A stretch of 53,582 bases of DNA from a virus (Duplodnaviria > Heunggongvirae > Uroviricota > Caudoviricetes). Position numbers and translations under genes: made by a program. Shown one piece after another: positions 1 to 52,184 of the stretch. Location of the stretch: the IMG/VR virus record IMGVR_UViG_2923318301_000003. One strand, 5' to 3'. The notes under the pieces are model-generated. The model was not told the origin of the DNA. It was given only the letters and a program-made list of their open reading frames with translations, and did not search any database. Within the stretch, counting starts at the first letter, position 1. Each line of letters starts with the position of its first letter.

Positions 1-1209
1 CTACTTTGTAGCGTTCACCAGCAAAGAAATACATGAATTATGATTAGCGTTTATATAGTCCGCATACCACTGCATCATCTCCCTACGTCCTTCCAAATAC
101 AACGCATGGTTATACGTCCCACGAATCGCATTTTTATCAACGTGAGCCAGCTGGGTTTCAATCCACGCTGTATTGAAACCTTCCTCATGCAAAATCGTAC
201 TCATCGTGTGACGGAAACCATGCCCCGTTACCCTCCCCGTATATCCAATCCGCTTAAAAACCTGATTAATACTCGCTTCACTCATCGTCTTGCGGGGATC
301 ATTACGTCCCGGGAACACCAGTGGATATTGCCCTGACATCACTTTGAGTTGCTGTACGATTTCCAGCGCTTGGGTAGAGAGGGGGACAAGGTGAGGCCGT
401 TTCATCTTCATACGCTCGGCAGGTATCTCCCACACCGCTTTTTCAAGATCAAACTCACTCCAGAAAGCACCTCGGAGTTCGCCAGTGCGAACTCCCGTGA
501 GGATCAGCAGACGTGCCGCAAGAACAACTAACGGGCTTCCTGTGTAGCCTGCGAGAGCTTTAAAAAAGTCTGGTAACTCCTCAACAGTAAGGAAGGGATA
601 ATGCTTCGATTCATGCCCTGACATCGCGCTGGTAAGATCCGCTGCAGGATTGTATTCCGCACGACCGGTTACGATGGCGTAACGAAAGACTTCGCTGCAA
701 CGCTGGCGAACCTTCTTGGCCTTCTCTGTCGCGCCACGGCTTTCAATTCGACGCAGCACATTAAGCAGAACCAGCGGTTTGATTTCATTCACCGGTTGTT
801 GGCCAATATAGGGAAAAATATCTTTATTAAAGGCTTCGATAATGTCCGAGGCATAACCTTCTGACCATCGGCTCACCTTCGTTCCATGCCATTCAAGTGC
901 CACAGCCTGAAACGTATTATTTAGCTGCACATCTCGAACCAGCTTTTCTTCTTTCTTGGCAAGCGATGGATCGATACCTTCGGCAAGCTTTTTCTTGGCG
1001 TCGTCACGCAGTGCCCTCGCTTGTGCAAGGGACACTGCCGGATAGACACCAAAGGCCATACGCTTCTCTTTTCCATTGAAGCGATATTTCATCCGCCAGT
1101 ATCTGGAACCAGAGGGAACAACCTCAAGATACAAACCAGCACCATCTGCCAGCTTATAGGCTTTCTCTCTGGGTTTAGCTGCGTCTACCTGTCGCGCATT
1201 AAGTTTCAT
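1..1209 (-). CDS. P4-type tyrosine integrase of a second thrW-associated island that continues left of the window
   Basis: 415-aa ORF (likely start at MKLNARQ). C-terminal HGFRHT...LAH...Y motifs typical of tyrosine recombinases, with a P4/CP4-like N-terminus. Start faces the tRNA-Thr 3' repeat at 1371..1418; stop codon is at 1..3. Confidence 0.85.
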   Translation of the reverse strand: MKLNARQVDAAKPREKAYKLADGAGLYLEVVPSGSRYWRMKYRFNGKEKRMAFGVYPAVSLAQARALRDDAKKKLAEGIDPSLAKKEEKLVRDVQLNNTFQAVALEWHGTKVSRWSEGYASDIIEAFNKDIFPYIGQQPVNEIKPLVLLNVLRRIESRGATEKAKKVRQRCSEVFRYAIVTGRAEYNPAADLTSAMSGHESKHYPFLTVEELPDFFKALAGYTGSPLVVLAARLLILTGVRTGELRGAFWSEFDLEKAVWEIPAERMKMKRPHLVPLSTQALEIVQQLKVMSGQYPLVFPGRNDPRKTMSEASINQVFKRIGYTGRVTGHGFRHTMSTILHEEGFNTAWIETQLAHVDKNAIRGTYNHALYLEGRREMMQWYADYINANHNSCISLLVNATK

Positions 1210-1370
1210 TGGGGGCATCTCCCTAGACCGAACACAAAATGCCCCCACTTATGCCCCCAACTGCGACTTGATTTCGGTTGAGTCTAGTTGATAACAGGAG
1301 ATAAGATACGGGCCAGAAACCGCAGTATACGAGCTTTTAGTTGATTTCGGTAGACTTGGGAAGAGTTTGA

Positions 1371-1418
1371 AATGGTGCCGATAATAGGAGTCGAACCTAC
1401 GACCTTCGCATTACGAAT
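1371..1418. repeat. 48-bp direct repeat identical to the 3' end of tRNA-Thr (distal att core copy)
   Basis: aatggtgccgataataggagtcgaacctacgaccttcgcattacgaat is identical to 52137..52184; the two copies diverge immediately afterwards. Confidence 0.85.
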
Positions 1419-2165
1419 TATAAGAATCCGCTTCTAATTCAAAGTATTACCCCATCAACACTGTGCTCACACGTCCCACCACATCAAAACATGTAAAGCC
1501 TTGCAAGCCATTGTGAGGCCTTATGTGTCTCAGTTTTGTCCCACCTTGTATTATGACTTGCATAGCCAATGAAGATAAACGTGACGACAAACAGCGCAGC
1601 AGTCTTCTTTTCTTTCACACTTTCCCCAATCAGCATACATACTTTCTACCATAACTGTAGTGAATGTCTGTTATGAGCGAGCAAAAGAGATTCAATTACC
1701 GGGGAATTACTCCGACATAAGCTCTCCCAGAAACACCGGAACAGCGATTCGCATATTCTCTTCTATACTTTCAGTCTGACCGGCTGGAGATTTCATAGCA
1801 AGAAAATGGATGCGCCAAGACCTATGCGGGAAAGAGGCTGAGGAAATAATTGCCGATAGCACTGTGCCCGACGAAAAGTTAATCTGGCACGCAATGACGC
1901 GCGTCCTTGGGGCATCAGGAATCAGAGAGCCAACTTAACAACCCATTACATATTATTTAACCGGACTGTTACATGTACAAAGTTCAATGATTAGTGATTC
2001 TGTGACGCCACATACAACCTAAGCCCCTGATATAAAACCAGTCTATGCAACACCTAAAAATCATATATGATAGGGTGATAAGTCAACGCGCAGTATAAAA
2101 ATTAAGCTAAAAAATGCTTTCAGCATAGTGAATCTATTTCACACTACATAATTAAGGATGAAAAA

Positions 2166-3011
2166 ATGACTGCACCAGTAATTAGTTTTATCAATATGAA
2201 AGGTGGGGTTGGTAAAACAACTTTATGCGTTGGGATTGCTGAGTTTTTAGCCAACCATATGGGGCGCAAGGTTCTAGTTATCGATATTGATCCTCAATTT
2301 AATGCCACTCAGTCCTTAATGGGGCATTATGATCGAGTAGAAGAATATATGACTGCCCTTCGCCCTAATAATCAAACCATTCGAAAGATTTTTGAGCTTC
2401 CAAATTCATTAATGGAAGATGAAAAGAAAGTGACACCAGAACAGGTCATTACTAAAGTTTCAGACAATCTTGATATTATCTTAGGTGATATAAACATTAT
2501 CTTTGATACTAACCAAGAGGGTATTAGAATAAAAATGTTGCGTAAATTCATCACCGAAAATGACTTAAAAGAAAGTTACGACTATATCTTTATCGATAGC
2601 CCCCCAACAATCTCATTATTTACAGATACCGCACTCCTTGCTTCTGATTATTATCTTACTCCGGTTAAAATTGATCACTACTCGGTGCTTGGAGCAAGCA
2701 GTTTAAATAGCGTTATAAGAAATATGCGCACACATCATGAGAAAGAAATCAAGCAAGTCGGTTACATTTATACAAACACTGATGCTGAAATGACCAATAA
2801 AACAAGGGAAATTAAAGAACAATTCGAAAACCATACTCAATTTACAAATTTTTATTTCTTTGAAAATCAATTAACCTACGTGCGTGATTTAATGGTAGGT
2901 TATCAAGGAAATATTCCTTCTTGTTATTCAAAGTCACGCCAAGATATAGAAAAGATCTGTAACGAATTTATTAACAGAGTGGCTCACTTGGAAGGTAACA
3001 CAAATGAATAA
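2166..3011 (+). CDS. ParA/MinD-family deviant Walker-A ATPase, first gene of a three-gene operon
   Basis: N-terminal MKGGVGKTT (KGGxGKT deviant Walker A); 281 aa; AT-rich; 8-nt overlap with the next gene. Confidence 0.8.
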   Translation: MTAPVISFINMKGGVGKTTLCVGIAEFLANHMGRKVLVIDIDPQFNATQSLMGHYDRVEEYMTALRPNNQTIRKIFELPNSLMEDEKKVTPEQVITKVSDNLDIILGDINIIFDTNQEGIRIKMLRKFITENDLKESYDYIFIDSPPTISLFTDTALLASDYYLTPVKIDHYSVLGASSLNSVIRNMRTHHEKEIKQVGYIYTNTDAEMTNKTREIKEQFENHTQFTNFYFFENQLTYVRDLMVGYQGNIPSCYSKSRQDIEKICNEFINRVAHLEGNTNE

Positions 3012-3402
3012 ACAATTAATTAAAGCGCTCAATAAAGCTAATAATATGCCCATGACCAAAGAAAACTTCTTAGGCTTGGTAATTATGTTGATTCTTTCAA
3101 AAGAGGTTTTTAGATCAAATTTTGATGTTAGTAAATTTATTAACAAAACCTTCAAAATATCTTTTTTGAATTATGCTGTACGGTCAAGAACTTTGATGTG
3201 CGCTAAAATTTGCAGACATATTAATGAATTAAGTGAGAATGACATAAAGATGGCTTATACGCATTTCTTAAACAACATTAACACATTAGACATTATTTTT
3301 AATGATGCAAATAAAACAAGCCAAAAATCCACATCTAAAAGCAAGCATGCTATAAGGAATTTAAATATTTGGATTAATGCAAATAAAAAGGAAGAAGAAT
3401 AA
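3004..3402 (+). CDS. Hypothetical protein, operon partner of the ParA-like ATPase
   Basis: 132-aa ORF overlapping the upstream stop; its stop overlaps the next start (ATGA at 3402). No recognisable motif. Confidence 0.6.
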   Translation: MNKQLIKALNKANNMPMTKENFLGLVIMLILSKEVFRSNFDVSKFINKTFKISFLNYAVRSRTLMCAKICRHINELSENDIKMAYTHFLNNINTLDIIFNDANKTSQKSTSKSKHAIRNLNIWINANKKEEE

Positions 3403-4067
3403 TGCTCACGCAGGATCCCTTCAACATTGGAAGAGATGTAAATTATTTTAGAGCGGAGGTGCAAAAGCACCTCAGAACCACTGATGAAATAAACAAATCA
3501 GTATCAATATTTAGGCAAATAAGTCTTTGTAATACAATTTTAAGTCACAATCCTAATCTAAATCACTCTTCTTATATAAAAGGTTTTATATATGATACCT
3601 TAAACTCCTTAATTGCCATTATAAAAAAAAGAGAACGGTATCTCCAACTGAACTTCCGCTCAATGGTGGAGCATGTGGCCAGAATAAGCCTCAATAAGAA
3701 CTACAATGGTGGGGATTTTGACCAAACTGTACGTCGTAGAGACTTTGACTTCTTAAAAGCCCAACAAGTCGATGAAGGCTGGTCTTATTTACATAATGTC
3801 TATATCAACGCCTGTTATTATGTTCACTCCTCCCCCCAAGCGAACCTAAATGTTACATCAACATTTATATCACTTATGGAGGGAGATTGTAATTCAACAC
3901 AGCATAAAATGGTGAAAAAACTTCATGAGGTAGTATCGGCGCTGATGAGAATCATTATAAAGTATTATCATCAGCATATCTCAAACATTTTCTTTAGAAA
4001 CAAAAAGGATTTAGAGAAAATAATGGGAAAAAGCCTTTATTCATATTATACCAGCTTAGACAATTAA
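3402..4067 (+). CDS. Hypothetical protein, third gene of the ParA-like operon
   Basis: 221-aa ORF translationally coupled to the upstream gene; contains R-x4/5-H spacings (RAEVQKH, RSMVEH), which are not diagnostic. Confidence 0.6.
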   Translation: MLTQDPFNIGRDVNYFRAEVQKHLRTTDEINKSVSIFRQISLCNTILSHNPNLNHSSYIKGFIYDTLNSLIAIIKKRERYLQLNFRSMVEHVARISLNKNYNGGDFDQTVRRRDFDFLKAQQVDEGWSYLHNVYINACYYVHSSPQANLNVTSTFISLMEGDCNSTQHKMVKKLHEVVSALMRIIIKYYHQHISNIFFRNKKDLEKIMGKSLYSYYTSLDN

Positions 4068-4862
4068 TTCTCTCATATTCATTGCGTAGAGCATAAATAT
4101 CTATCTAACCACCTAAAATGCCAGAAAATCTAGTTGTATACCGGTGCGAAAATATCTCGCGTTTCATCTGCCACTGCTGCTGAATGCCCTGCCCAGCGAA
4201 ACAGAGTGTTTCCTTCCCGTCTTTTGCATTGAGGTGCTCCAGCACGCTCATTAACTTTTCGCTCCCAGGACCCAGCGCGTTATCGTCGAATAGGTTAGGG
4301 CATGCTCTGACTGAAGAAGTCCCCCAGCATTACCCCGGCTTTCTGATATCGGTGTCCGTCTTTCCATATTGCATCCAGACTCCCCGTTGCTACTGCAATG
4401 ATATCCCGACTGTCCTGTGTCGGGATGAGCAGCTTCACCGACGCGCTGTTACAGTAGTACGACTCGTTCAACGCAAAGGGTATCGTGTAAAACCGATGAT
4501 GACACTGCCGGCAATCAGCACTGACGTCAGCAAACGTGAGAAAGAACAGATAAGCCGAACGATTTAGGAAATGTTTGAAGAGACTGATATGTGGATGGTT
4601 TCAGTTTAAACGCCTTGAACCGTCATATTACCTAAGTACAATCCGCTGTGACTGGCAATCATTCAATACTTGCACTATCAAAAGTGCATCAGCCAACCGC
4701 AGCACGTCTTGCATACGACCTGTCTGCGGTTTCAATCACCTCTCACCACCAGTCCCATCAATAATAATTAAACAGCGCCTAAACAAAATAAATAACAACA
4801 AGTCAACAACCTCGACAGGATGCCGATGGGATGTAAGCGACTCATCAGAACCGTATTGATAT

Positions 4863-6434
4863 TTACTGAGAGCTCAGATCAACTTTCCAGGGCAACAGAT
4901 CGCGTACCCGGTTTGCCGGCCAGTCCTGGATATGTTCAATGACGTAACGCAGCCACTTTTCTGGCTCCACATTGTTCAGACGGCATGTGCCGATCAGCGA
5001 GTACAACACCGCCGCATGTTCACCACCGCTGTCGGAACCCGCGAACATCCAGTTTTTCCGGCCTACGGCCACTCCCCGTAAGGCGTTCTCTGCGATGTTG
5101 TTGTCGATTTCCACCCAGCCATTACTGCAGTACACGTTCAGTGCATCCCACTGTTTCAGCAGGTATGCGAACGCTTTTGCCGTATCTGAGTGACGCGACA
5201 GTGTTTTCATCTGTTGCTGTATCCAGTCATACAGTGACTGCATCAGTGGCGCGGCTCTGGCTTTTCTTGCCGCCAGACGCTGTTCTGCTGAACAGCCCCG
5301 GACCTCTGCCTCGATGGCATACAGTTCACCGATACGCTGCAGGGCTTCCGTGGTGATGTAGGTGGGCGCTCTTGCATGCACATCGTGGATTTTTCTCCGG
5401 GCATGAGCCATACACGCGGCTTCCGTTATTCTGCCGGATTCGTATAACGCCCGGTAACCACCGTAAGCATCGGCCTGAAGCACACCGCTGTAACCGGCCA
5501 GGTAATTTTGTGGATGGATACCTTTCCGGTCCGGACTGTACGCGAACCAGACCGCCGGGGGCATCTGTGAACCGGCGTTACGGTCATCACGGACGTAGAC
5601 CCACAGCCGGGCTGTCCGGGTTTTACCGCTGCCCGGCTCCTGGACCGGGACGGGGATATCATCAGCATGGACTTTACCGGGCATCAGCACATACTGGCGC
5701 AGGACGTCATACAGCGGCTCCAGCAGTTCAGCAACAGCACCTGTCCAGCGCCCCAGTGTGGCACGGCTCAGCTCCACTCCCTGACGACGGTATATTTCTG
5801 ACTGGCGGTATAACGGCAGATGGTCTGCATATTTCCCGGTGACAACATGGGCCAGAAGCCCCGCTCCGGCATAACTGCGTGCAATGGGTTTTGAAGGTAC
5901 TGGTGCCTGCACGATATGGTCGCACCGGCAACAGGCCTGTTTCGGACGTTGTGTTTCGATAACCTTAAAGGCGCTGCTGATAAGCTCCAGTTGCTCTGAC
6001 ACATCACATCCCAGAGAACTGAGTTCACCACCACAGGCAGGACAGCATTCCTCTTCCGGCCGGATAACCCGGGTTTCACGGGGAAGTGAGGCCGGTAACG
6101 GTTTACGGGCTGAAGACTGGCGCAGGGCGGATGGCAGTACCGGGTCATATTGCTCACCCAGCGTTTCCGCCATTTCTTCCTGAAGTGCGCTGATTCGCTC
6201 CTGTGCTTCCTGTATCTGCCGTTCGGTTTTTGCACGAAGTTTTTCTGAGCTTTTACCGAACTGCATACGTTGCAGTTTCGCAACCAGCGCCTTCAGCCGG
6301 TTGATTTCGGAAGCATAAGCCGCCACCCGCTGTGAGAGCAGGCGGTTGTATTCAGCCATCTGGCGGATGGTGTCCTGTTGCGTCTGCAACAGTGCCCGCA
6401 GGCGGGCGTTCTCATGAGCAAGTGAGGTGTCCAT
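4863..6434 (-). CDS. IS66-family transposase TnpC
   Basis: 523-aa ORF with N-terminal coiled-coil/leucine-zipper, a Cys-rich zinc-finger-like segment (CPACGG...CCRCD) and a DDE-type core; typical IS66 TnpC layout. Confidence 0.85.
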
Positions 6435-6453
6435 ATCCTCACTTTACAACGGG

Positions 6454-6801
6454 TTATATGCGGATTCCAGCGCGTTCCGTTCGTTTCGGGTGCTTCCAGT
6501 TGATACCTTCAAGAAGCATGGATAACTGAGCCGGAGTAAGGTGCACCTTGCCGTCACGGGTGACTGGCCAGACGAAGCGGCCCCGCTCCAGGCGTTTGGT
6601 GAAGAGGCACAGTCCGTCACTGTCAGCCCACAACACTTTTATCTGGTCACCCCGGCGTCCGCGGAAGATGAACAGGTGTCCGGAGAACGGGTCATCCTTC
6701 AGGACGTTCTGAACTTTTGATGCCAGGCCGTTAAAGCCATTTCGCATATCGGTGATACCTGCAACCAGCCAGATACGCGAACCTGCAGGGAGAGATATCA
6801 T
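6454..6801 (-). CDS. IS66-family TnpB (Orf2) accessory protein
   Basis: 115-aa ORF between orfA and tnpC with the conserved IS66 Orf2 character (WLVAGITDMRNGFNGLA...). Confidence 0.8.
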   Translation of the reverse strand: MISLPAGSRIWLVAGITDMRNGFNGLASKVQNVLKDDPFSGHLFIFRGRRGDQIKVLWADSDGLCLFTKRLERGRFVWPVTRDGKVHLTPAQLSMLLEGINWKHPKRTERAGIRI

Positions 6802-7478
6802 CAGTGGCTGCTCCCTTTTATTTCGCGGATAAGTGTCTGTAATAACGCCGGCGTCAGTTTACCTTTAAGCCTGAGAGTTCCGGCCGGCAGAACCAGCTCA
6901 CAACACAGACTGTCGGACGGTGTATTTATCTGCTCTGGTTCCTGTGCGGGGGCCGGGATTTTATTATCCGGCTCCGGCGTTAACGTCACGGGAAGCAGTG
7001 CCGGCATATTTTTTCCGGAAGGCAGCAGGCCACCTTTCCGGTATTGATGGCGCCAGTTGAAGAGCAGGTTATCGTTGATTCCGTTTTCCCGGGCGATCTG
7101 CGCCACACAGGCTCCGGGCTGCAGTGACTGCTCCACTAAGGCGATTTTAAACTCATAAGGGAAGTTGGGCCGCCGGGGACGTTTTTTTACCACGGGGGCT
7201 TCGGATATAACGGTGCTTTCAGGACGTACGACTGGTACCGTGGAAAATTGTCCGTAAAGGCAGGCATCAAGTTCCTGCTCCGACATGCCTGCGGGCAAAG
7301 GCCACGAAAGGCCAGCTCTCCGAAAGCGCACGAACATACTACAAACTGTTGATTTTGGTACACCCAGGCGACGCCCGGCCACAACCCGGGGTAAATGTTC
7401 TTCAAAGTGAAGACGTAAAGCTTCAGTGATCCAGGTCCGGTGTTTCATACGATAGTGTCCATTAAAAATGATGGACAT
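6801..7478 (-). CDS. IS66-family OrfA (Orf1)
   Basis: 225-aa ORF whose stop overlaps the tnpB start. HTH-like N-terminus. True start may be the internal Met (MKHRTW). Confidence 0.7.
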   Translation of the reverse strand: MSIIFNGHYRMKHRTWITEALRLHFEEHLPRVVAGRRLGVPKSTVCSMFVRFRRAGLSWPLPAGMSEQELDACLYGQFSTVPVVRPESTVISEAPVVKKRPRRPNFPYEFKIALVEQSLQPGACVAQIARENGINDNLLFNWRHQYRKGGLLPSGKNMPALLPVTLTPEPDNKIPAPAQEPEQINTPSDSLCCELVLPAGTLRLKGKLTPALLQTLIREIKGSSH

Positions 7479-7644
7479 TATTTTTGTAGAGCCGGAGGAA
7501 ACAGACCAGACGGTTTAAATGAGCCGGTTACGATGGGATGATGAAGAGATAAGAAAGAATAACTAGTAAAGCCCTAAAACGTCAGCGTTCAGACGCGTTT
7601 TTTACTTAACCGGTAACAAATACGTTGTATCATAGCAACATAAA

Positions 7645-9594
7645 ATGATTGTTCTAAATCAGATTAACTCCTCACTTTTGTACAATGTCGCTTACAGGTA
7701 TACCATGAAATCCGAGACGCTAACTGTCCAACAACTTTTTCAAGACCGCCGACAATACTGTGTTCCATTCTATCAACGTGCCTATGTATGGACTCAGCGA
7801 AACCAATGGTCAGCTCTACTGGAGGATATCCTAGAGAAAGCACAATCCCGGCTCTCGGGTACAAAACCAACTCCCCATTTCCTTGGTGCAGTGGTACTGG
7901 AACCTCAACCAAAAAAAGGATTATTCGGTGTAGATTCCATACATATTATTGATGGTCAGCAACGATTGACCACTCTTCAATATGTTCTGGCATCCATCCG
8001 ATTAGCATTACGTGCGACAGATCTTTCCAACTTAGAGCCTCTCATTTCGTCTTGCCTGAAAAACTCAAACGAAGACACAATGCGAAATAAAGAAGTAGAG
8101 CGCTTCAAACTGTGGCCAACTTTTCGGGATCAAACTCATTTTATTCAAAGTTTTAATGTTGAAAATATTGACGATATCCGGAATGTATTCTCTGATAGTT
8201 TCACGCAGCATGGTACGTTGCGTAAGCATTTTAATCACCCGCCATCACTAGAAGCATTATGTTTTTTTACTGAAGCCTTTATAAAGTGGATTAAAATAGA
8301 AAATCACTCACCACGAGAAAATGCTGTAGCATTAATTGAGGCTGTCTTGACGGATCTGAAACTAGTAAGCATATTTCTCGAGGCTGAAGATGACGCTCAA
8401 ATAATTTTTGAAACATTAAATGGCAGAGGTGCGGAACTTCATGCCACAGATCTTATTCGCAATTATATTTTTATGTGCGCTGAACATGAAAATATTAATG
8501 CTGTTGAATTATATGAGAATGAGTGGAAGATCTTTGAAGATACGTACTGGTCAGAAAGACAACGTCGTGGTCGTATTAATAAACCACGCATGGAGTGGCT
8601 AGTGCATGCAACATTGCAATCAGAAAGGCAACGTGAAATCGATCTGTCTCGTCTTTACAATGAGTATCGTGATTATGTAAGTAAGGACTTGCCTTCACAA
8701 CGAGCAGATCTGCAAGTAAAGCGCCTCAAACAATATGCATCACAATATAAAGAATTGGTTGGTGGTTTTGGCACAACCCCCATCTCACACTTTGGACATC
8801 GCATCGCAGCCTATGATGTGACGACACTTTATCCGCTTGCTTTGTTCATTTCGATAGCTAACATCGCCGATGATGAGAAAGCAGCCATGTATAATGATCT
8901 TGTCTCCTACGTAGTACGAAGAGCCGTATGTGGCCTGACGCCAAAGAATTACAACAATGTATTTATGAATGTATTGCGGCACTTGTCTAAAACAGAAATT
9001 TCCAGTGTTGAGTTACGTAATATCCTCAATAGCTTAAATGGCGAAGCCTCACGTTGGCCTGGGGACTCAGAATTTCTCAACGCTTGCATCAATGCTCCAC
9101 TTTATCCTGGCAGGCTCGACGCACCGAAAATGCGCTCAATGTTAACGGAACTTGAAAGAGAACTTTGTCGCCAAGTGAAGACAGAGAAGCCTGATGTTCC
9201 AAATCTTTCTAACCTCGATATCGATCATCTTATGCCTCAAAGTTGGTATTCCTGTTGGCCTCTCGAAAATGGTCATATGGTGACAAATTCAGATGCTACG
9301 GTATTGAACCAAATTGTTCTGTCTGGAACCGATCTTACCCCAGAACAGCTACTGGTAAGGAAACGGCAACAAGCGATAGCTACGTTGGGAAATCTAACTT
9401 TGCTTAACCTTAGCGTAAACCGTTCTGTTCAGAATGCTGTATTTCTGAAAAAACGTGATGCTCTCATCGTCCACACCAATCTACGACTGAACATTCCACT
9501 TATAGTTAAGGATAAATGGGATGAGGATGAAATCCTGGAGCGGGGTAAAAAGTTGGGGGAAATTGCATTGAAAGTATGGCCAAAACACGATTAA
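7645..9594 (+). CDS. Fused DUF262/DUF1524 protein, GmrSD-family type IV (modification-dependent) restriction endonuclease-like
   Basis: N-terminal ParB-like/DUF262 hallmark (IIDGQQRLTTLQ) and C-terminal His-Me finger/DUF1524-like motif (DIDHLMPQSW); 649 aa. Alternative start at 7705. Confidence 0.75.
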   Translation: MIVLNQINSSLLYNVAYRYTMKSETLTVQQLFQDRRQYCVPFYQRAYVWTQRNQWSALLEDILEKAQSRLSGTKPTPHFLGAVVLEPQPKKGLFGVDSIHIIDGQQRLTTLQYVLASIRLALRATDLSNLEPLISSCLKNSNEDTMRNKEVERFKLWPTFRDQTHFIQSFNVENIDDIRNVFSDSFTQHGTLRKHFNHPPSLEALCFFTEAFIKWIKIENHSPRENAVALIEAVLTDLKLVSIFLEAEDDAQIIFETLNGRGAELHATDLIRNYIFMCAEHENINAVELYENEWKIFEDTYWSERQRRGRINKPRMEWLVHATLQSERQREIDLSRLYNEYRDYVSKDLPSQRADLQVKRLKQYASQYKELVGGFGTTPISHFGHRIAAYDVTTLYPLALFISIANIADDEKAAMYNDLVSYVVRRAVCGLTPKNYNNVFMNVLRHLSKTEISSVELRNILNSLNGEASRWPGDSEFLNACINAPLYPGRLDAPKMRSMLTELERELCRQVKTEKPDVPNLSNLDIDHLMPQSWYSCWPLENGHMVTNSDATVLNQIVLSGTDLTPEQLLVRKRQQAIATLGNLTLLNLSVNRSVQNAVFLKKRDALIVHTNLRLNIPLIVKDKWDEDEILERGKKLGEIALKVWPKHD

Positions 9595-9616
9595 TGCAAT
9601 TAATAAAATGATTATA

Positions 9617-9640
9617 GCGGCCTTACATTAGTAAGGCCGC
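9617..9640. terminator. GC-rich hairpin immediately downstream of the GmrSD-like gene
   Basis: gcggcctta-cattag-taaggccgc, a 9-bp perfect stem; no strong U-tract on the + strand, so terminator function is tentative. Confidence 0.4.
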
Positions 9641-9989
9641 TACTCACTATTAAATCCTTTAATTTGCAACAAGAACAGCAGTGTCAGCCCTAGGTTTCGG
9701 ACTTTGTACCGCTTATCTTGTCTTCAAAAATCAGCTCGCATCCTGCACAGTTCAGCGCATTACGAATCTGTAGCACCAATCTTAACTATCTGTTTTAGCA
9801 AGCATTAACCGCATTCACTAAGCTATAGTTGATGGCACAAACAGAAAGTTGATGCATGATGTTGTCATGTGTATGTCACAAATGCGGCACAACGATCTTC
9901 AAACATGTAGCCACACATCCACAGAAGAGCACAAAGCCTTGCAATCCAGTGCAACGCTTTGTGTACCATAGTTTTTCCTTATCAACTAC

Positions 9990-10192
9990 CGCAAGTATCG
10001 ATCGATGGAGGCTTGGATGTTAAATTTCATGACTTTGATCACTTGGTGCATCACGAAACTATCGAAGTGCAACTCGCTCATGCCAACGGCGGATCTGTGC
10101 GTGGGATTTACAACCATGCTCAGTATCTAGATAAGCGCAGAGAAATGATGCAGTGGTGGGCTGATTACATCGATGGTCGTGCAGGAGTGTAA
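9990..10192 (+). pseudogene. Remnant of the 3' end of a P4-type integrase gene
   Basis: Translation ...ETIEVQLAHANGGSVRGIYNHAQYLDKRREMMQWWADYIDGRAGV aligns with the C-terminus of the integrase at 1..1209 (...ETQLAHVDKNAIRGTYNHALYLEGRREMMQWYADYI...). No N-terminal or catalytic domains upstream. Confidence 0.55.
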
Positions 10193-10196
10193 GCCA

Positions 10197-24511: not shown

Positions 24512-24915
24512 TTTCCCGCAGAAACAGGCTCTGCAGGCCCGGCGTCCTCTGTCTGTTCAGGGGTATTATTCACCACAAACTCATACATACCAGACAGCCG
24601 GTACACCACGTTTTCAGCATGAGAAATTGCCTCCGTGGGCCAGGTGGTAAGCACTTCCTGCTCAATCTGTTTAACGGCTTCATTCATGGACGGCATCTGC
24701 GTCTTCTGCGGATGGTTATGCCACAGGGACATCGCCACCAGAAACGCGCCGGTTCTGATGGCGTCTTCAACAGTAAACTTCCGGTTGCTGTCTGACTCCG
24801 CCTGTTCTGCCTGCCGTTTCATCAGGGCGAGATGCTCAATACGCTGCAGGGCTGACAGTTCAGAAAGCGTGACGGTCACACCGTTATGTTCAAATGATTC
24901 GGTTTTCAGGAACAT
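24493..24915 (-). CDS. G: Tail assembly chaperone G
   Basis: 140-aa ORF matching lambda gpG. Confidence 0.9.
   Translation of the reverse strand: MFLKTESFEHNGVTVTLSELSALQRIEHLALMKRQAEQAESDSNRKFTVEDAIRTGAFLVAMSLWHNHPQKTQMPSMNEAVKQIEQEVLTTWPTEAISHAENVVYRLSGMYEFVVNNTPEQTEDAGPAEPVSAGKCSTVS
24511..24517 (-). other. Programmed -1 ribosomal frameshift slippery heptamer GGGAAAG for G-T
   Basis: The - strand reads G GGA AAG immediately before the G stop codon, as in lambda. Confidence 0.8.
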
Positions 24916-24930
24916 CGCTGACTCTCCGGA

Positions 24931-25671
24931 TTAACTGGCGGTGACGGTGATTTCTGCAACCGCAGCAAACTCACCATTACCGGATACGACCGGAATGTTG
25001 ACCTTACCTGCAGCAACGCCATTCACGGTGATGGTCATACCACTGACCGACACGGTGGCTTTTGTTTTATCCGCTGACACCGCACGGAAGCTCTTGTCGG
25101 TTGCGCCATCCGGCTGGAATGCCACGGTCAGCGTGGTGCTCTGCCCTTTCACTACGGAAGCACTGGCGGGTGTCACCGTCATGCCGGTCGTCGCCGTCAC
25201 CGTGCTGCGATCTTCTGCCATCGACGGACGTCCCACATTGGTGACCTTCACCGTGCGGGTAATCACTTCCTTCGCCGTCACCGCCTTACCGATACTGCTG
25301 ACCCAGCCACGGAACACATCGACCGTGCCGTTCGGGAAGCGGATTTTATAGGCACGGGTATCGCCTTCATTAAACCACGCCAGCAGCGCCTGCTGCCCCT
25401 GCTCTCCGGGCATCCACGCCAGCGTGAAGCTGGTATCTCCGGCAGATTTCTGCCCCTGCCCGGTCGCAGTCCAGTCTGCATCTTCATCATCGAGATAGCT
25501 TTCGTCATAGGACTCAGCGGTCAGTTCGCCGGGCGTCAGGTCTTTAACTTTTGCCAGACGCGACCAGTCAACGTCTGAAAGCGGGTTCGCATAAGGGTCA
25601 CCGCTCCCCTTATAAACCCACAGGGTGGTCCCGGCACCTTTCACCGGCATTGTAGGATTTGGTACAGGCAT
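24931..25671 (-). CDS. V: Major tail tube protein V
   Basis: Lambda gpV-like starting MPVPNPTM; 246 aa after trimming the upstream in-frame extension in the ORF track. Confidence 0.9.
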
Positions 25672-25678
25672 AGCGTCC

Positions 25679-26074
25679 TCACATTTCATAGGTAATGACA
25701 TAAGTCAGATCGGCTGAACTCCACAGGCCCGCATCATCGTCGCGCCGGTAGTCATAGCCGCTGGCCACCATACTGGTGATCAAATCTGACAGTGCCGGGA
25801 TATCGCTCATCACCGGATAAATCCGGGACTCCATCCACGCATCCAGCTCTGAATCCGGCACCTGAGCAGGCAGGAAAACTTCGATATGCAGCTCCGCCTG
25901 CCAGGTATCGCTGTCCAGCTCTTCGCCCGTGTATTCAGCGCCGGTGAGATAAACGGCAACTGCCGGAAAATCCGCCTCATCAAAAACAGCGGGGCGACCA
26001 TCAAAAAACGTCGCCCCGGTGTCATGCTTCTCCAGTGCATCCAGTACGGCTGCACGGAGTTCAGTATGTTTCAT
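25679..26074 (-). CDS. U: Tail terminator protein U
   Basis: 131-aa ORF matching lambda gpU. Confidence 0.95.
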
Positions 26075-26649
26075 CGCTTTATTACCATTCTCAGTTGATG
26101 CTGCAGCGCATAGCCCAGCTCTTTCGGAAGACGTTCACGCCGTATCCGTTCAATATTCTGTTTAAACGCCGTGGTCAGCGGCACCGCCATCGGGATTTTC
26201 ACCACATCAATGGGGTAACGGTTTTTCCCGGCCACACGCTGCATAACATGCCACCGGCCGTTTTTCAGTTGCTGAATAAACGCGCCGGGAATACGACGGT
26301 TTCCCACCACAAGCACGCTGCCGCCACCTTTCAGGGCTGAACGCTGCCCCTTTTTACGACGCCTGCGTCGGGACAGGACAACCCGCGCGTTACCCAGCTT
26401 GATTACGGGCAAATCCCCCCGGTTAACTTTGATTCTGGCCTGCGGATTTTTGACCGTGGCCCTTTTCAGCCTGGCCCTTTCCTTTACCAGTTTCCGGCGC
26501 ACCTTTGTCTCACGGACAACCTGTGACGCCGACTGCGATATCGCGGATGAAGCAACGCGGTTAATGGCCATTGCGGCGGCACCAGGCACCGCCGTTTTGC
26601 TGATACGGCTGAGGTTTTCAACGGCCTGCTCAAGACCTTTTATGGCCAT
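26071..26649 (-). CDS. Z: Tail completion protein Z
   Basis: 192-aa ORF matching lambda gpZ. Confidence 0.9.
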   Translation of the reverse strand: MAIKGLEQAVENLSRISKTAVPGAAAMAINRVASSAISQSASQVVRETKVRRKLVKERARLKRATVKNPQARIKVNRGDLPVIKLGNARVVLSRRRRRKKGQRSALKGGGSVLVVGNRRIPGAFIQQLKNGRWHVMQRVAGKNRYPIDVVKIPMAVPLTTAFKQNIERIRRERLPKELGYALQHQLRMVIKR

Positions 26650-26660
26650 ACATCCCCCTT

Positions 26661-27014
26661 TCAGCGGCGACGGTTAACGGCAGGCGGTACCCCCCGCCCA
26701 AGCCAGAGATGACAGCTTCCGCCATCATCCGGCGTAACCCGATCTACCCAGAAGTTTTCCTCACCGATGGTCAGCGTGTCTCCACGCCGCAGCTGCCGCA
26801 CATCATCAGTCCGGACAAACAGGGACGGGCTGGAGCCTTCAACGCGCACGCCCTGTCCGGCATAGCTGATATTTTCAGGGTCATCAAAAACACCACGTAT
26901 TACTGCGCCGGACTGCTCACCGGATGTCATGGTGGCTGACGTTCCCATGTACCCGCGTATCGTTTCATCGGCGCGGGCAATGGCAGCATCGAACAGGTTA
27001 TCGAAATCAGCCAC
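26661..27014 (-). CDS. FII: Head-tail joining protein FII
   Basis: 117-aa ORF matching lambda gpFII. Confidence 0.9.
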   Translation of the reverse strand: MADFDNLFDAAIARADETIRGYMGTSATMTSGEQSGAVIRGVFDDPENISYAGQGVRVEGSSPSLFVRTDDVRQLRRGDTLTIGEENFWVDRVTPDDGGSCHLWLGRGVPPAVNRRR

Positions 27015-27025
27015 AGCGCCTCCCG

Positions 27026-27421
27026 TTATTGCATTCTGGCCAGGCCGCGCGCTGTCATTTCAGCTGCCACACCGGCAGAGACACGGAACGCCGTTCCCGG
27101 CAGCACAAATGCCACAGCCTCATCCCGCGTGGCGTGAAGTGCATCAGTATGCAGCGTCACCAGTGCCACAACCGTGACCAGAGCAGCCGTATCAGTCACG
27201 GTATCCGTCTGCGCTGATACCACCTCATTTTCATGTCCGGTCAGCGCATTTTCCGGGCTGACAGACGTGTCCAGACCGGCTGCGTCATCCGTGTCATCAA
27301 GCTCCTCTTCCAGCTCTGCCACACGGAGCGCCAGTTCTTCTTTCGTCCCCTTCAGGCTGACATCACGGTTCAGTTGCTCACCCAGCGACCGGAGACGGGC
27401 AATCAGTTCATCTTTCGTCAT
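27026..27421 (-). CDS. FI: DNA packaging protein FI
   Basis: Lambda gpFI-like starting MTKDELIARLRSLGEQL; trimmed from the longer ORF-track frame. Confidence 0.85.
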   Translation of the reverse strand: MTKDELIARLRSLGEQLNRDVSLKGTKEELALRVAELEEELDDTDDAAGLDTSVSPENALTGHENEVVSAQTDTVTDTAALVTVVALVTLHTDALHATRDEAVAFVLPGTAFRVSAGVAAEMTARGLARMQ

Positions 27422-27462
27422 GGATTCCTCCACAGAGAGAAAATGGCCCCGAAGGGCCATGA

Positions 27463-28488
27463 TTACGCCAGTTGAACGGACACGAACTCATCAGGATCAG
27501 CCAGCAGCATCAGCGGTGCTGACTGAATCATGGTGAACTCTCGCGCCGGATCGCCGGATGTCTTCCAGTTTTTCGGATAACGGGGAGACGCATTAATACC
27601 CTCACTCAATGCATCCGCATCCTGAATACAGCCATAGGTGCGCAGACCGCGTGCATGAGTGTTACCCAGCACCATCGTGTTGTCCGGCAGGAAGTTCTTT
27701 TTGACGCCGTTTTCCACGTACTGTCCGGAATACACGACGATGGCCACATCGCCATACATCCCCTTATAGGACACCGCTTTACCCAGGTCTTTCACCGCTG
27801 TCTCCAGCTCGGAATGAGAGCCACGACGGGTATCCAGCTTCTCCCTGACGGCTTTGAAGGAACGGAACAGCGCCCAGCCTTTCGGGTCAAACACGATGAT
27901 ATTCACCACGCCGCTGGCGTTCAGCGCGTAGGCTTCGATATCGTCGGTCGGGTCATACGTGGACTTGTCACGCTTGCTCCACTCCGTGACGCCGGACTGT
28001 GTGATGTTGTTCGCCGCACTGCGGCCCATATCCACCTCAACCGGATCGAAGGCTTCACCGGTCATGGTGTATTTGCCCTTGAGCACGGCAGAAACTGCCT
28101 GCATCTCTTCGACCTGAGCAATGGCCAGCTCTTCGTCACGCATGTTCTGCATGATGATGCGACGGCGGCGGTAAGCCGGGTCCGCCAGATTCTGCGGATC
28201 TTCATCCGGCAGGCGACGCAGGGTCATCTGCGGATTCACTTCATGCTTCGGCTTGACATATCCCGGCGTAAATTCAGAGGTGGAGCCGCCACGGGAACGG
28301 ATAACCTCACCGGAAACAATCGGCGAAACGTACAGCGCCATGTTTACCAGTCCCGGAATTTGTGAGAGATAGACTTTCTCCGTGGTGAAGGGATAGCTCT
28401 CACGGAAAAAGAGACGCAGAAACAGCGGATCAAACTTAAATTTCTGCTCATTTGCCGCCAGCAGCTGGGCGGTTGTGTACATCGACAT
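27463..28488 (-). CDS. E: Major capsid protein E
   Basis: Lambda gpE-like starting MSMYTTAQLLAANEQKFKFDPLFLRLF; 341 aa. Confidence 0.95.
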   Translation of the reverse strand: MSMYTTAQLLAANEQKFKFDPLFLRLFFRESYPFTTEKVYLSQIPGLVNMALYVSPIVSGEVIRSRGGSTSEFTPGYVKPKHEVNPQMTLRRLPDEDPQNLADPAYRRRRIIMQNMRDEELAIAQVEEMQAVSAVLKGKYTMTGEAFDPVEVDMGRSAANNITQSGVTEWSKRDKSTYDPTDDIEAYALNASGVVNIIVFDPKGWALFRSFKAVREKLDTRRGSHSELETAVKDLGKAVSYKGMYGDVAIVVYSGQYVENGVKKNFLPDNTMVLGNTHARGLRTYGCIQDADALSEGINASPRYPKNWKTSGDPAREFTMIQSAPLMLLADPDEFVSVQLA

Positions 28489-28543
28489 AAAAAAATCCCG
28501 TAAAAAAAGCCGCACAGGCGGCCTTTAGTGATGAAGGGTAAAG

Positions 28544-28876
28544 TTAAACGATGCTGATTGCCGTTCCGGCAAACGCGGTCCGTTTTTTCGTCTCGTCGCT
28601 GGCAGCCTCCGGCCAGAGCACATCCTCATAACGGAACGTGCCGGACTTGTAGAACGTCAGCGTGGTGCTGGTCTGGTCAGCAGCAACCGCAAGAATGCCA
28701 ACGGCAGCACCGTCGGTGGTGCCATCCCACGCAACCAGCTTACGGGTGGAGGTGTTCAGCATCAGCGGGGTCATTGCAGGCGCTTTCGCACTCAATCCGC
28801 CGGGCGCGGTTGCGGTATGAGCCGGGTCACTGTTGCCCAGCGGCTGGTAATGGGTAAAGGTTTCTTTGCTCGTCAT
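28544..28876 (-). CDS. D: Capsid decoration protein D
   Basis: Lambda gpD-like ([12 protein letters not shown]...AISIV); 110 aa. Confidence 0.95.
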
Positions 28877-28885
28877 AAACATCCC

Positions 28886-30185
28886 TTACACTGGTGTGTT
28901 CAGCAAATCGTTAACGGCATCAGATGCCGGGTTACATGCAGCCAGCGGTGCCGGTGCCCCCTGCATCAGACGATCCAGCGCAGTGTCACTGCGCGCCTGT
29001 GCACTCTGTGGTGCTGCGGCCAGAATACGGCGGGCCGTTTCCACGGTCATACCGGGGGTTTCGGCCAGCACGCATGCCTGTTCTTCGCGTCCGTGAGCCT
29101 CCTCACAGTTGAGGATCCCCATAATGCGGCTGTTTTCTGCCGCAACCGCAGCGGTGATCTGCGCGTTCACGTCCGGCTGCGCCGCGCTGGCGTTTTCGCC
29201 CTCCGTCGCTGGCACCACGTCAGTAACGTCAGCCTGCGAAGCAGTGGCTGAAACAGTTGTTGATTGAGTCTCTTTGGTCATTCGCCCTCCTGAGAGACGG
29301 GATTTACGTGCATCCAGTGCATCACGCATAACGGTGATCGCATCGGTGCTGTTGACAAGTTCATCAGCCAGTCCGGCATCAATGGCCTCCTGACCGCTGT
29401 ACACTGCAGCCTCGGTATCCAGCACAGCCTGCACGGACAGGCCGGTATATGCCGACACCTTTTGCGCAAACATCCGGCGGGTTGCATCCATCCGGGACTG
29501 CAGTGTCTCCCGGACGTCATCCGGAAGATGGCTGTAGGGGTTGCCATCCACCTTATGGCTGCCGCTGTAAATCAGCGTGATTTCCACGCCCTGTTTCTCC
29601 AGCGCAGCACCGTAATTACTGTGAGCCATCATGACGCCGATGGAGCCTGTCCGGGCGGTCTGCGTGACCAGACGCCGGGAGGCGGCACTGGCAAGCAGCT
29701 GACCTGCGCTGCAGTTCATGTCATTGGCCAGCGCCCATACCGGCTTTATGTCACGCACACGGGCGATGATGTCAGCGCAGTCAAATGCCCCTGCCACCAT
29801 TCCGCCGGGCGTGTCCATATCCAGCAGAATGCCGTCCACCATCGGGTCGCTGGCAGCCTGTTGCAGACGGGCGATAATGCCGTTGTAACCGGTCATCCCC
29901 GAATACGGCTGCAGCGCCCGCGTCCGGCTGACCAGCGTGCCGGAAACCGGCAGCACGGCGATGCCGTTCATGACCTGATAACTGCGGGCCTGTCGTGGTC
30001 CGTCATCATCACCGGATAACGCCAGCGTCGCGGGTGCCTCTCCGGCAGTCAGGCTGTCGCCGGACACCGCATCCGTCAGGCGACTGATCCCAAGCTGGCC
30101 TGCAAGCGCACAAAAGAAAACCCGCGCATAGGCGGGTTCAAGCATCAGCGGCTCATTAAAAGCCATGCTGGCAATATGCGGGAGA

Positions 30186-30205
<20 letters not shown>
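28886..30205 (-). CDS. C: Capsid assembly protease C, with nested in-frame scaffold Nu3
   Basis: Lambda gpC-like (start near MTAELRNLPHIASMAFNEP); S49-type protease region; the Nu3 scaffold corresponds to the C-terminal part of the same frame. Confidence 0.9.
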
Positions 30206-33886
<3,681 letters not shown>

Positions 33887-33912
<26 letters not shown>

Positions 33913-34432
33913 TCAGCAACCCCGGTATCAGTTCATCCAGCGCGGCTGCTTTGTTCATGGCTTTGATGATATCCCGTTTCAGGAAATCAACATGTCGGTT
34001 TTCCAGTTCCGGAAAACGCCGCTGCACCGACAGGGGGATCCCGTCGAGAATACTGGCAATTTCACCTGCGATCCGCGACAGCACGAAAGTACAGAATGCG
34101 GTTTCCACCACTTCAGCTGAGTCTCTGGCATTCTTCAGTTCCTGTGCGTCGGCCTGCGCACGCGTAAGTCGATGGCGTTCGTACTCAATAGTCCCTGGCT
34201 GGAGATCTGCCTCGCTGGCCTGGCGCAGTTCTTCAACCTCCCGGCGCAGCTTTTCGTTCTCAATTTCAGCATCCCTTTCGGCATACCATTTTATAACGGC
34301 GGCAGAGTCATAAAGCACCTCATTACCCTTGCCACCGCCTCGCAGAACGGGCATTCCCTGTTCCTGCCAGTTCTGAATGGTACGGATACTCGCACCGAAA
34401 ATGTCAGCCAGCTGCTTTTTGTTGACTTCCAT
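33887..34432 (-). CDS. Nu1: Terminase small subunit Nu1
   Basis: 181-aa ORF (MEVNKKQLADIFGASIRTIQNWQEQGMP) matching lambda Nu1. Confidence 0.95.
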
Positions 34433-34439
34433 TGTTCAT

Positions 34440-34625
34440 TCCACGGCCAAAAACAGAGAAAGGAAACGACAAAGGCCCAAAAGTTCGTTTTCAGCACCTG
34501 TCGTTTCCTTTCTTTTCAGGGGGTATTTTAAATAGAAACATTAAGTTACGACGAAGAAGAACGGAAACGCCTTAAACCGGAAAATTTTCATAAATAGCGA
34601 AAACCCGCGAGGTCGCCGCCTCGTA
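34440..34625 (-). other. cos region (cosN 12-nt cohesive end at about 34608..34619, with the cosB side towards Nu1)
   Basis: aggtcgccgcct is the lambda cohesive-end sequence with one base change (lambda, as recalled: aggtcgccgccc); flanking sequence is lambda-like on both sides. Confidence 0.8.
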
Positions 34626-34820
34626 ACCTGTCGGATCGCCGGAAAGGACCCGCAAAATGATAATAATTATCATCTGCATGTCACAACGTGCATCTACGCC
34701 ATCAAACCACGTCAAATAATCAATTATGACGCAGGTATCATATTAATTGATCTGCATCAACTTAACGTAAAAACAACTTCAGACAATACAAATCAGCGAC
34801 ACTGAATACGGGACAACCTC

Positions 34821-35054
34821 ATGTCAACGAAGAACAGAACCCGCAGAACAACAACCCGCAACATCCGCTTTCCTAACCAAATGATTGAACAAATTAACAT
34901 CGCTCTTGATCAAAAAGGGTCCGGGAATTTCTCAGCCTGGGTCATTGAAGCCTGCCGCCGGAGACTGTGCTCAGAAAAAAGAGTTTCTCCTGAAGCAAAC
35001 AAAGAAAAGAGTGACATTACTGAATTGCTCAGAAAACAGATCAGACCAGATTGA
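34821..35054 (+). CDS. Small conserved hypothetical protein adjacent to cos
   Basis: 77-aa ORF with an ATG start in sequence recalled as lambda right-end DNA; function unknown. Confidence 0.5.
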   Translation: MSTKNRTRRTTTRNIRFPNQMIEQINIALDQKGSGNFSAWVIEACRRRLCSEKRVSPEANKEKSDITELLRKQIRPD

Positions 35055-35110
35055 AGCAATTTAGATAATCGTGCAGACTACGCCCCTCATATCACATGGA
35101 AGGTACTACA

Positions 35111-35521
35111 ATGGCTCAGGTTGCCATTTTTAAACAAATATTCGATAAAGTGCGAAATAATTTAAACTATCACTGGTTTTATTCTGAACTAAAACGTCAC
35201 AATGTCTCACATTACATTTACTATTTAGCCACAGAGAATATTCATCTTGTTCTTGAAAACGATAATACGGTTTTAATAAAAGGACAGGGTAAGGTTGTAA
35301 ATGTAAGATTTTCAAAAAATAAATGCCTTATAGAAGCCACATTAAAAGGATTCAAATCAGGAGAGTTATCATTTTACGAATACAGGAAAAATCTTGCTAC
35401 AGCAGGGGTTTTCAGATGGATTACAAATATCCACGAAAACAAAAGGTATTACTATACCTTTGATAATTCATTACTCTTTACTGAGAACATTCAGAACACT
35501 ACACAAATATTTCCGCACTAA
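35111..35521 (+). CDS. Uncharacterised prophage protein (YdfO/DUF1398-like, tentative)
   Basis: AT-rich ORF starting [38 protein letters not shown]; family assignment is from memory only. Confidence 0.6.
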
Positions 35522-36011
35522 ATCATAACGTCCGGTTTCTTCCGCGCCAGAACCGGACTCGCTGGCATGATGAAATATGTGTACCCGGTAACCCCGGTGT
35601 GCATCGTTTTTGATTATTCCCGCACACTCGCGCAGAAGGAGTTCCCCGTCGGGCTACGGTCTCTGTTAATACGGGAATACGGCGACGATACAGCGCATGA
35701 TGTGTCAGGCTTGAATACCTTTATCCTTTAAAAGGGATATCAGTTAAGTTATCCCGTGTAGGGTATAAGCCATTATCAAAGCCACTCTGTAGGAAGTGCT
35801 TTTGTAATGGCAATAAAAAGCCCCGCGAATGCGAGGCTAAATCCTGGTATTTGTAATGACTGGCTCTTATCTCAACGCAGCCCCTTACCGCGCGCAAAAT
35901 GCTCAATATCAAGCATCAGCAATGAGATGTTTAATCTGGATTCACTCCAGAAGTGAGCACCACCCTGTCTACAGAGCCAGATGTGAAGGATGATGAGTAA
36001 AATTATCGCTA

Positions 36012-50734: not shown

Positions 50735-51084
50735 TGGAGCCATACAGCCTCACACTCGATGAGGCCTGTCATTTTCTCAAGATATCCAGACCGACTGCCA
50801 TTAACTGGATACGCACAGGGCGTCTTCAGGCAACACGCAAAGATCCCACTAAGAATAAATCTCCTTACCTCACAACACGACAAGCCTGCATTGCGGCTCT
50901 TCAGTCTCCGCTGCATACTGTCCAGGTGAGCGCGGGTGATGGCATAACAGAGGAAAGAAAATGTCACTCTTCCGCAGAGGTGAAATATGGTACGCCAGTT
51001 TCACATTGCCGAACGGTAAAAGATTTAAACAGTCTCTTGGAACAAAGGACAAAAGGCAGGCGACAGAACTCCATGACAAGCTAA
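50734..51084 (+). CDS. Excisionase-like HTH protein (3' boundary uncertain; overlaps the integrase start)
   Basis: The N-terminus [30 protein letters not shown] is a typical excisionase/AlpA-type HTH; the open frame runs ~120 nt into the integrase gene. Confidence 0.55.
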
Positions 51085-52136: not shown

Positions 52137-52184
52137 AATGGTGCCGATAATAGGAGTCGAACCTACGACCTTCGCATTACGAAT
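52137..52184. repeat. att core within the intact tRNA-Thr (proximal copy of the 48-bp repeat)
   Basis: Identical to 1371..1418. Confidence 0.85.

Follow-up and report, generated by a model that had tools for sequence, protein, structure and literature searches.

Who owns the complete integrase gene at the edge of this prophage locus, and how many mobile elements has the tRNA gene at its other end taken up? The stretch in question, record IMGVR_UViG_2923318301_000003, covers 53,582 nucleotides (the window, meaning the whole stretch that was analysed), from the stop codon of a P4-type integrase at base 1 to the start of the chromosomal gene proA at base 53582, with a lambdoid prophage beside the tRNA gene thrW. 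An earlier reading made from the letters alone (the sequence-only reading) had noted a 48-bp repeat of the tRNA 3′ end followed by a complete P4-type integrase reading away from it, and had taken this to imply a separate island that continues to the left and that occupied thrW before the phage. We find that the locus very probably holds two independent integrative elements in tandem at the 3′ end of thrW, the lambdoid prophage and an island carrying the P4-type integrase. The boundaries and the independence of both elements can be read directly from the comparisons below, whereas the order of arrival and the present mobility of either one are inferred. The argument turns on the following features:

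1-1209, minus strand: complete P4-type tyrosine integrase of 402 amino acids, the same protein as WP_000772656.1 (domains, alignment to P4 Int, annotated complete coding sequence)
1371-1418, minus strand: distal att copy, a hybrid site of the prophage attR (core 1373-1418) and the attL-side flank of the island (exact 48-bp repeat)
1419-1685, no strand assigned: prophage-side att arm, common to different thrW prophages and free SfIV attP
10197-50960, no strand assigned: lambdoid prophage body (annotation of the 99.9% identical SCEC020023 locus)
50961-52124, plus strand: prophage integrase of 387 amino acids, Sf/P22 type, reading toward thrW (identity to SfIV Int)
52137-52184, minus strand: proximal att copy, the prophage attL core within intact thrW (exact 48-bp repeat, comparison with SfIV attP)
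52139-52214, minus strand: thrW, tRNA-Thr(CGT), intact (ARAGORN), the sole tRNA gene in the window and adjoining proA
52329-53582, minus strand: proA, chromosomal flank (open reading frame list and annotation)

The repeat itself is exact: positions 1371-1418 are identical to 52137-52184 in 48/48 bp. A second occurrence of the 48-mer 1373-1420 lies at 52139-52186 and departs from it in the final two bases only, where no such recurrence was expected (100 shuffles), and two preceding bases, aa in both copies, extend the match leftward to 1371. Positions 1373-1418 are the last 46 nt of thrW, so that the 48-bp repeat consists of these and 2 further nucleotides. With an intact open reading frame of 402 codons beside it, the starting observation of the sequence-only reading stands.

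Which element the repeat belongs to follows from its letters. A 46-nt att core has been published for SfI, SfII, SfV, SfX, and P22 (PMC3636060), and the reverse complement of 1373-1418 equals it letter for letter. This core, ATTCGTAATGCGAAGGTCGTAGGTTCGACTCCTATTATCGGCACCA, is present at both ends of the prophage, with flanks that together rebuild an attP. Free SfIV attP reads, in order, integrase end, GTAACTTATTGATTTTAA, core, and TATAAGAATCCG onward; in the copy numbering of our analysis, window copy 1 supplies the left flank and window copy 2 the right flank, on either side of the core. Because the flanks in the window rebuild SfIV attP, 1373-1418 is the prophage attR, and the sequence from 1419 onward is phage arm. 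The arm at 1419-1685 is nearly identical to the SfIV attP sequence beside the core, and it is all that the thrW prophages of strains CRE1493 and AR435 share with the window to the right of the att copy (1419 to about 1685). In phage-only genomes, matches to window positions 1-25000 start exactly at 1371. The boundaries are therefore exact, with the phage at 1373-52184 and the island from 1372 leftward, and the repeat length of 48 bp is set by the 46-bp Sf/P22-type core of the phage and not by the island, whose own repeat measures 16-17 nt. The hybrid copy at 1371-1418 thus takes its 46-nt thrW homology and right flank from the phage attP, and its left flank from the integrase-proximal end of the island.

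The prophage integrase is 100% identical to that of SfIV, 98.5-99.5% identical to those of SfI, SfII, and SfV, and 90% identical to those of P22-like phages, which places it in the SfI, SfII, SfIV, SfV, and P22 integrase group. The genome of strain SCEC020023 is a 99.9% colinear proxy over the entire window except for one IS903B, and its annotation lists tail fibres, Lom, J, tape measure, head, terminase, lysis, and Q genes in the prophage body, together with repressor and cro, replication and early genes, and xis. The prophage (1373-52184) is thus apparently a complete lambdoid phage, with an Sf/P22-type integrase acting via a 46-bp core identical to the 3′ part of thrW.

The integrase at the left edge is of another kind. 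Its open reading frame spans 1-1248 on the minus strand, with an ATG at 1209 and the stop codon at bases 1-3, so that it reads away from the att copy, and it is annotated as a complete coding sequence in SCEC020023, WCHEC005784, and NCTC86. It has the domain order of P4-type integrases: PF13356 (Arm-DNA-bind_3/DUF4102) at residues 3-88 (E = 3.5e-29), PF22022 (Phage_int_M, the central SAM-like domain) at 100-194 (E = 4.5e-34), and the catalytic domain PF00589 (Phage_integrase) at 206-370 (E = 6.8e-23). Over its full length it is 44% identical to P4 Int (416 aligned positions, E = 5e-124), and the catalytic R, HxxR, and Y are conserved, with VRTGELR, HGFRH, and RGTYNH aligning with the P4 motifs. 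Against the NCBIfam model NF007246 it scores 303 bits, under the cutoff of 434 bits, and we therefore regard it as a relative at the family level and not as an equivalog under this model. A distance of 164 bp separates the integrase start from the att copy upstream, and a short direct repeat is found at the distal end of the island.

The bases left of position 1 lie outside the window, and the island body is described here from genomes that are 99.9-100% identical across the window. From the integrase, an island of about 48 kb extends to the left in SCEC020023 and WCHEC005784, in agreement with the earlier claim that the integrase belongs to a separate island continuing to the left. Its distal end reads TTGATTTTAA / TGGTGC-GATAATAGGA / ACAAAAC, beside the yagP′ fragment and paoD, and consists of the native thrW downstream flank and then a 16-nt piece of the tRNA 3′ end, interrupted by a gap of 1 nt. 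The 16-nt repeat TGGTGC-GATAATAGGA stands beside yagP′ in three of the loci compared (L002, that of WCHEC005784, and L013 and L014). The same gapped repeat ends the island in M217 and NCTC86, which lack the phage, as well as a different P4-type element in strain 32-4. Since the gap is shared by island-only strains, tandem strains, and another P4-type element, its sequence distribution points to a property of the attP family and not to decay; its use as a decay marker to date the island was rejected for the same reason. If the gap is placed on the element side, GCACCATT is the unbroken identity around the likely crossover, and this accounts for the 2 nt by which the repeat of 48 bp exceeds the core. 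The island would accordingly begin immediately left of the copy at 1371-1418 with the integrase at 1-1209, run for about 48 kb, and end beside yagP′ and paoD.

Short repeats near both island ends are candidates for the sites at which its integrase would bind:

1211-1218 (inverted), 1239-1247, and 1251-1259, no strand assigned: three ATGCCCCC motifs, candidate arm-type integrase sites of the island
1268-1281 and 1341-1354, no strand assigned: direct repeat TTGATTTCGGTnGA, between the integrase start and the att copy

Only 2 further occurrences of ATGCCCCC are found in the 53.6-kb window, and two copies lie about 65-85 bp inside the distal end of the island (positions 990 and 1002 of L002, within 990-1010). 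Judged by their placement, the ATGCCCCC clusters at both ends are plausible candidate arm-type sites, and the TTGATTTCGGTnGA repeat possibly represents further, putative sites for the integrase or an accessory factor. Indirectly, the finding of the same island at a complete thrW, behind a phage, and before a phage is consistent with a putative role of this integrase in catalyzing integration and excision at thrW.

When 5426 complete Escherichia coli genomes were queried with synthetic junctions, the following states of the site were recovered:

Empty site (paoD-yagP′-thrW-proA): 818 genomes
Complete thrW with the island integrase immediately next to it: 213 genomes, many of them matching the synthetic junction at 100% identity
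Integrase, att copy, and phage arm joined as in the window: 56 genomes holding at least 80% of the junction

The whole island is carried without the phage by NCTC86, and M217 likewise lacks the phage. In strain KMi006 the order is paoD-yagP′-attR-phage, with no island. The comparison of thrW loci across strains proposed earlier thus yields empty, island-only, phage-only, and tandem states. If a tandem array is taken to have at least three direct att copies and at least two elements with an integrase of their own, each known alone elsewhere and with an empty site in existence, the locus belongs to this class: copies 1 and 2 lie in the window, copy 3 is seen in WCHEC005784 (L002) and in island-only strains, and the two integrases are unrelated.

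The sequence-only reading had further reported a third, decayed P4-type integrase at 9990-10192. The open reading frame there spans 9959-10192, and two fragments are found in this part of the window:

9596-9764: pin recombinase fragment (comparison of fragment origins)
10059-10192, plus strand: 3′-terminal fragment of an intS-like (CPS-53/argW-type, P4-family) integrase gene (NF007246, nucleotide identity to intS)

A C-terminal integrase fragment is indeed present: the open reading frame matches positions 355-394 of the 413 positions of NF007246, a P4/IntS-type model (E = 1.9e-10), with nothing but the C-terminal part. The DNA at 10059-10196, however, matches the 3′ end of intS from many genomes at 93-96% nucleotide identity; intS we take to be the integrase of the argW-associated CPS-53 element. 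Upstream of the remnant lie the pin fragment and then an unannotated stretch. At the pin fragment junction, positions 9757-9768 match the end of the att core over 12 nt (CGCATTACGAAT). The stretch after CGCATTACGAAT, up to 9977, is arm-like and contains AAAGCCTTGCAA, as the true arm does at 1495-1506; it is about 65-70% similar to the spacer between attP and gtrA of SfIV, and homologous also to a sequence of O55:H7 strain TB182A about 200 bp from an integrase. The stretch at 9757-9977 may be what is left of an earlier att arm in the ancestry of the phage, and we read the 12-nt core match and the arm-like stretch as mosaic phage sequence. An alignment of 9820-9860 to the core, at about 50% identity, was probably forced by the aligner.

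Two other ways of counting the elements were considered. The integrase at 1-1209 and the lambdoid prophage could form one composite element with two integrases, and integrase, att copy, and ParA region are indeed contiguous and occur together in 22 genomes. We give this next to no credence and rejected it: each element occurs alone elsewhere, the phage without this integrase and with its boundary at exactly 1371, the integrase without the phage in the island-only genomes including NCTC86; the boundaries fall exactly at the core; and the prophage has its own integrase and attL and attR flanks that rebuild SfIV attP. The partners are also exchanged on both sides. At least three kinds of prophage stand proximal to this island (that of the window, the SfI/e14-like myovirus of CRE1493, and in AR435 a further lambdoid prophage with CBASS-type SMODS/SLATT genes), and in strain 32-4 the ParA-to-GmrSD accessory end sits on a related lambdoid prophage beside a different 20-kb element, left of the att copy. 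An integrase that is part of the same element, the case the sequence-only reading had named against itself, is hence not what the genomes show. Alternatively, 1419-10196 and the remnant could be the relic of a third island that once lay between the phage and the P4-type island, as the P4-family fragment and the CGCATTACGAAT core-end match with its arm-like continuation might suggest. This too is very improbable. The remnant sits at the same place, colinear, in KMi006, so that the accessory region goes with the phage where the phage is the sole occupant of thrW; its sequence is that of the argW-associated intS and not of a thrW island integrase, and it lies on the strand opposite to the island integrase. 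In addition, no third copy of the first 17 nt of the core (at most 2 mismatches) was found anywhere in the window, and thus none beside the remnant. In strain 32-4, the ParA-to-GmrSD stretch (to 9764) is contiguous with the pin remnant and the tail-fibre genes of one phage, and an O55:H7 prophage has a comparable integrase fragment beside its tail-fibre genes. We conclude that the remnant is a fossil that the phage genome carries along, and that it does not mark a third element at thrW.

The order of arrival is a separate matter. That the island was resident at thrW first and the phage came later, as the sequence-only reading had supposed, is probable to our mind, but less firmly so than that two elements are present. 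In this order of events, the phage would have recombined with the regenerated, complete tRNA gene of an island-bearing thrW, landing between thrW and the island. We favor it because the island-only state is much more prevalent (the 213 genomes, NCTC86 among them) than this phage and is 100% identical at the junction, and because different prophages hold the proximal position beside the same island. Experiment points the same way: SfI integrated at attL, which holds the complete thrW, of a resident SfX prophage, so that the newcomer adjoined thrW (PMC3306764). The opposite history, in which a resident prophage offered the partial thrW copy in its attR to a later P4-type island, would have to accommodate all three of these observations, and we consider it unlikely, though not negligibly so. 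In its favor, the attR of a phage-only strain holds the 46 nt of the thrW 3′ end and the native flank, which is all that the 16-17-nt core of the island needs, and a different P4-type element occupies that same attR in strain 32-4.

Several observations count against our account of the locus. The DNA left of base 1 is not part of the window, so that the island body reaches us, by inference, via the near-identical genomes. Both orders of arrival give an identical sequence, and structure therefore cannot tell the order; polymorphisms between the att copies, considered as a marker, were uninformative for this reason, the copies being identical. Finally, the reversed order, thrW-island-phage, exists in B20127 (L015) and ET490 (CP100947). 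It was detected with a synthetic query joining the phage integrase end, the 16-nt copy, and the distal end of the island, which matched at full length in B20127 (99.5%) and ET490 (97.7%); about 8 further genomes matched in part, with a truncated Sf-type integrase beyond the CbtA end of the island. This junction had been expected to be absent, and the idea that the phage is only ever proximal to thrW was dropped. In B20127 the order is proA, thrW, P4-type integrase, island, CbtA, short copy, Sf-type integrase, prophage, yagP′, and paoD (the attR of this prophage was not read letter by letter), and the prophage carries the same proteins as the one beside the island integrase in CRE1493. Either such islands entered lysogens, as B20127 and ET490 suggest they can, or these phages use the short attR of the island. 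Because such reversed-order strains exist, position is no safe guide to history, and the island-before-phage part of the earlier claim is likely but not established. A more far-reaching version, in which the thrW array is actively reshuffled because the island still integrates into lysogens or because Sf/P22-type integrases use the truncated 16-nt attR, seems improbable to us. If the integrases did use a 16-nt attR, an attB far smaller than the 46 bp of identity would suffice for function; by either route, tandem partners could trap or release each other.

The two elements resemble, and differ from, several known systems. With the serotype-converting phages of Shigella flexneri (SfI, SfII, SfIV, SfV, and SfX) and Salmonella P22 at thrW, the prophage shares an integrase of one group (98.5-100% identity to SfI, SfII, SfIV, and SfV, 90% to P22-like phages), the 46-nt core, and integration beside proA, and its attP arms beside the core are nearly identical to those of SfIV. 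It differs from them in its lambda-like body (tail genes of the siphovirus kind, J, Lom, and a terminase of the cos type) and in carrying ParA, GmrSD, and insertion sequence (IS) cargo beside att instead of the gtrABC O-antigen genes. The SfI-SfX tandem lysogen likewise has two head-to-tail elements at thrW with an att copy in between, and there the later arrival adjoins the complete tRNA gene (PMC3306764); in the window, however, the distal partner is a P4-type island with another integrase and a 16-17-nt core, and not a phage using the same att site.

As in other P4-type integrase islands of E. coli (among them thrW pathogenicity islands such as PAI III536), a P4-family integrase stands at the 3′ end of a tRNA gene and a short repeat marks the terminus. 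The distal module of the island consists of a GTPase gene, Ag43, an antirestriction gene, RadC/JAB, and YeeU/CbtA, and presumably resembles the "cryptic P4-like" modules of the CP4 type in K-12 (CP4-6 at thrW, CP4-44, and CP4-57). The cargo is different from that of these islands and comprises a group II intron, an lsr set, and a cluster of HsdM-like and ORC-CDC6 ATPase genes. K-12 matched an 842-bp junction query (819-1660) over 82 bp only, at another locus, and does not appear to have this integrase at thrW. Satellite phage P4 itself has an integrase of the same domain order, 44% identical to that of the island; the two elements have in common a tRNA 3′ end as target and short repeated motifs on the flanks of the core. 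Yet in the annotations of the approximately 48-kb island in WCHEC005784 and NCTC86, no P4 alpha primase/helicase, sid, psu, delta, or cos is listed; as these functions are not annotated, we do not regard the island as a P4 satellite.

Tandem occupancy of tRNA sites is textbook behavior, and the arrangement found here is real, ordinary, and of an already-known kind, its junction being present in dozens of RefSeq genomes. Among the E. coli tRNA genes, thrW is one of the most used integration sites and hosts several named islands (PMC7545054). As it is a recognized hot spot in E. coli and Shigella, the value of the present analysis lies mostly in correct annotation: the element boundaries are exact, the 48-bp repeat is assigned to the att system of the phage and the 16-17-nt core to the island, and one should not read too much into the integrase fragment near 10.1 kb or into the phage lying proximal to thrW. 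That both orders occur in nature is a minor but helpful warning not to deduce the order of arrival from tandem position.

The island looks old and is ridden with insertion sequences. Besides IS remnants, it holds the HsdM-like methyltransferase/ORC-CDC6 ATPase cluster, the lsr set, and the group II intron, with Ag43, antirestriction and RadC-like genes, and YeeU/CbtA toward its distal end. Directly after the integrase (L001 15804-19759, L002 43137-47092) come genes for an HsdM-family methyltransferase, an ORC/CDC6-family AAA ATPase (alternatively annotated as a zinc-ribbon protein), and a hypothetical protein, a cluster that looks like a defence-type module. The lsrKRACDBFG set for autoinducer-2 uptake is accompanied by an epimerase gene (L002 30345-39880, L014 9392-18927).

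In KMi006, an insert of about 11 kb (L008, about 24688-35951) splits the major capsid gene of the prophage. It encodes its own tyrosine integrase, a primase, an Icd-like protein, a major capsid protein, a head decoration protein, and a small terminase, and looks like a capsid-forming phage satellite inside the capsid gene of a helper-type prophage. In the window this gene is intact, going by the annotation of the near-identical SCEC020023.

The prophage end between the tail fibres and attR is an accessory region, colinear with phage-only KMi006 except for ISCro1. A promoter and terminator scan of 1-2200 returned nothing exceeding shuffled expectation. The region and its main genes are:

1419-10196, no strand assigned: accessory ("b-region"-like) prophage end, between tail fibres and attR (Pfam, PADLOC)
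2166-3011, plus strand: ParA-like ATPase (Pfam)
4834-7530, minus strand: ISCro1, IS66 family (tnpA, tnpB, and transposase at 4863-7478)
7645-9594, plus strand: full-length GmrSD-type (DUF262/DUF1524) type IV methyl-directed restriction enzyme (PADLOC mREase_IV, 1439 bits)

The ParA-like gene and two overlapping hypothetical genes behind it (132 and 221 amino acids) form a conserved three-gene cassette on the plus strand at 2166-4067. PADLOC gave only a weak partial match for the ParA-like gene and its neighbors, to which no defence system was assigned, and no match for the two hypothetical genes; the Pfam scan covered the ParA and GmrSD genes only. In SCEC020023, the ParA gene is interrupted by the IS903B. 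Fragments of genes for an SOS-response-associated peptidase, the C-terminal part of umuC (DUF4113), and dinI at 1798-1938 and about 4100-4570 are gene debris typical of recombination-prone prophage ends. ISCro1 is absent from KMi006 and strain 32-4, where the two alignment blocks overlap by 10 bp, suggesting that at most about 10 bp of target were duplicated. The GmrSD gene is prophage cargo adjoining attR, and other thrW prophages carry type II restriction-modification genes (CRE1493 and B20127) or the CBASS-like SMODS/SLATT genes (AR435) at the same position.

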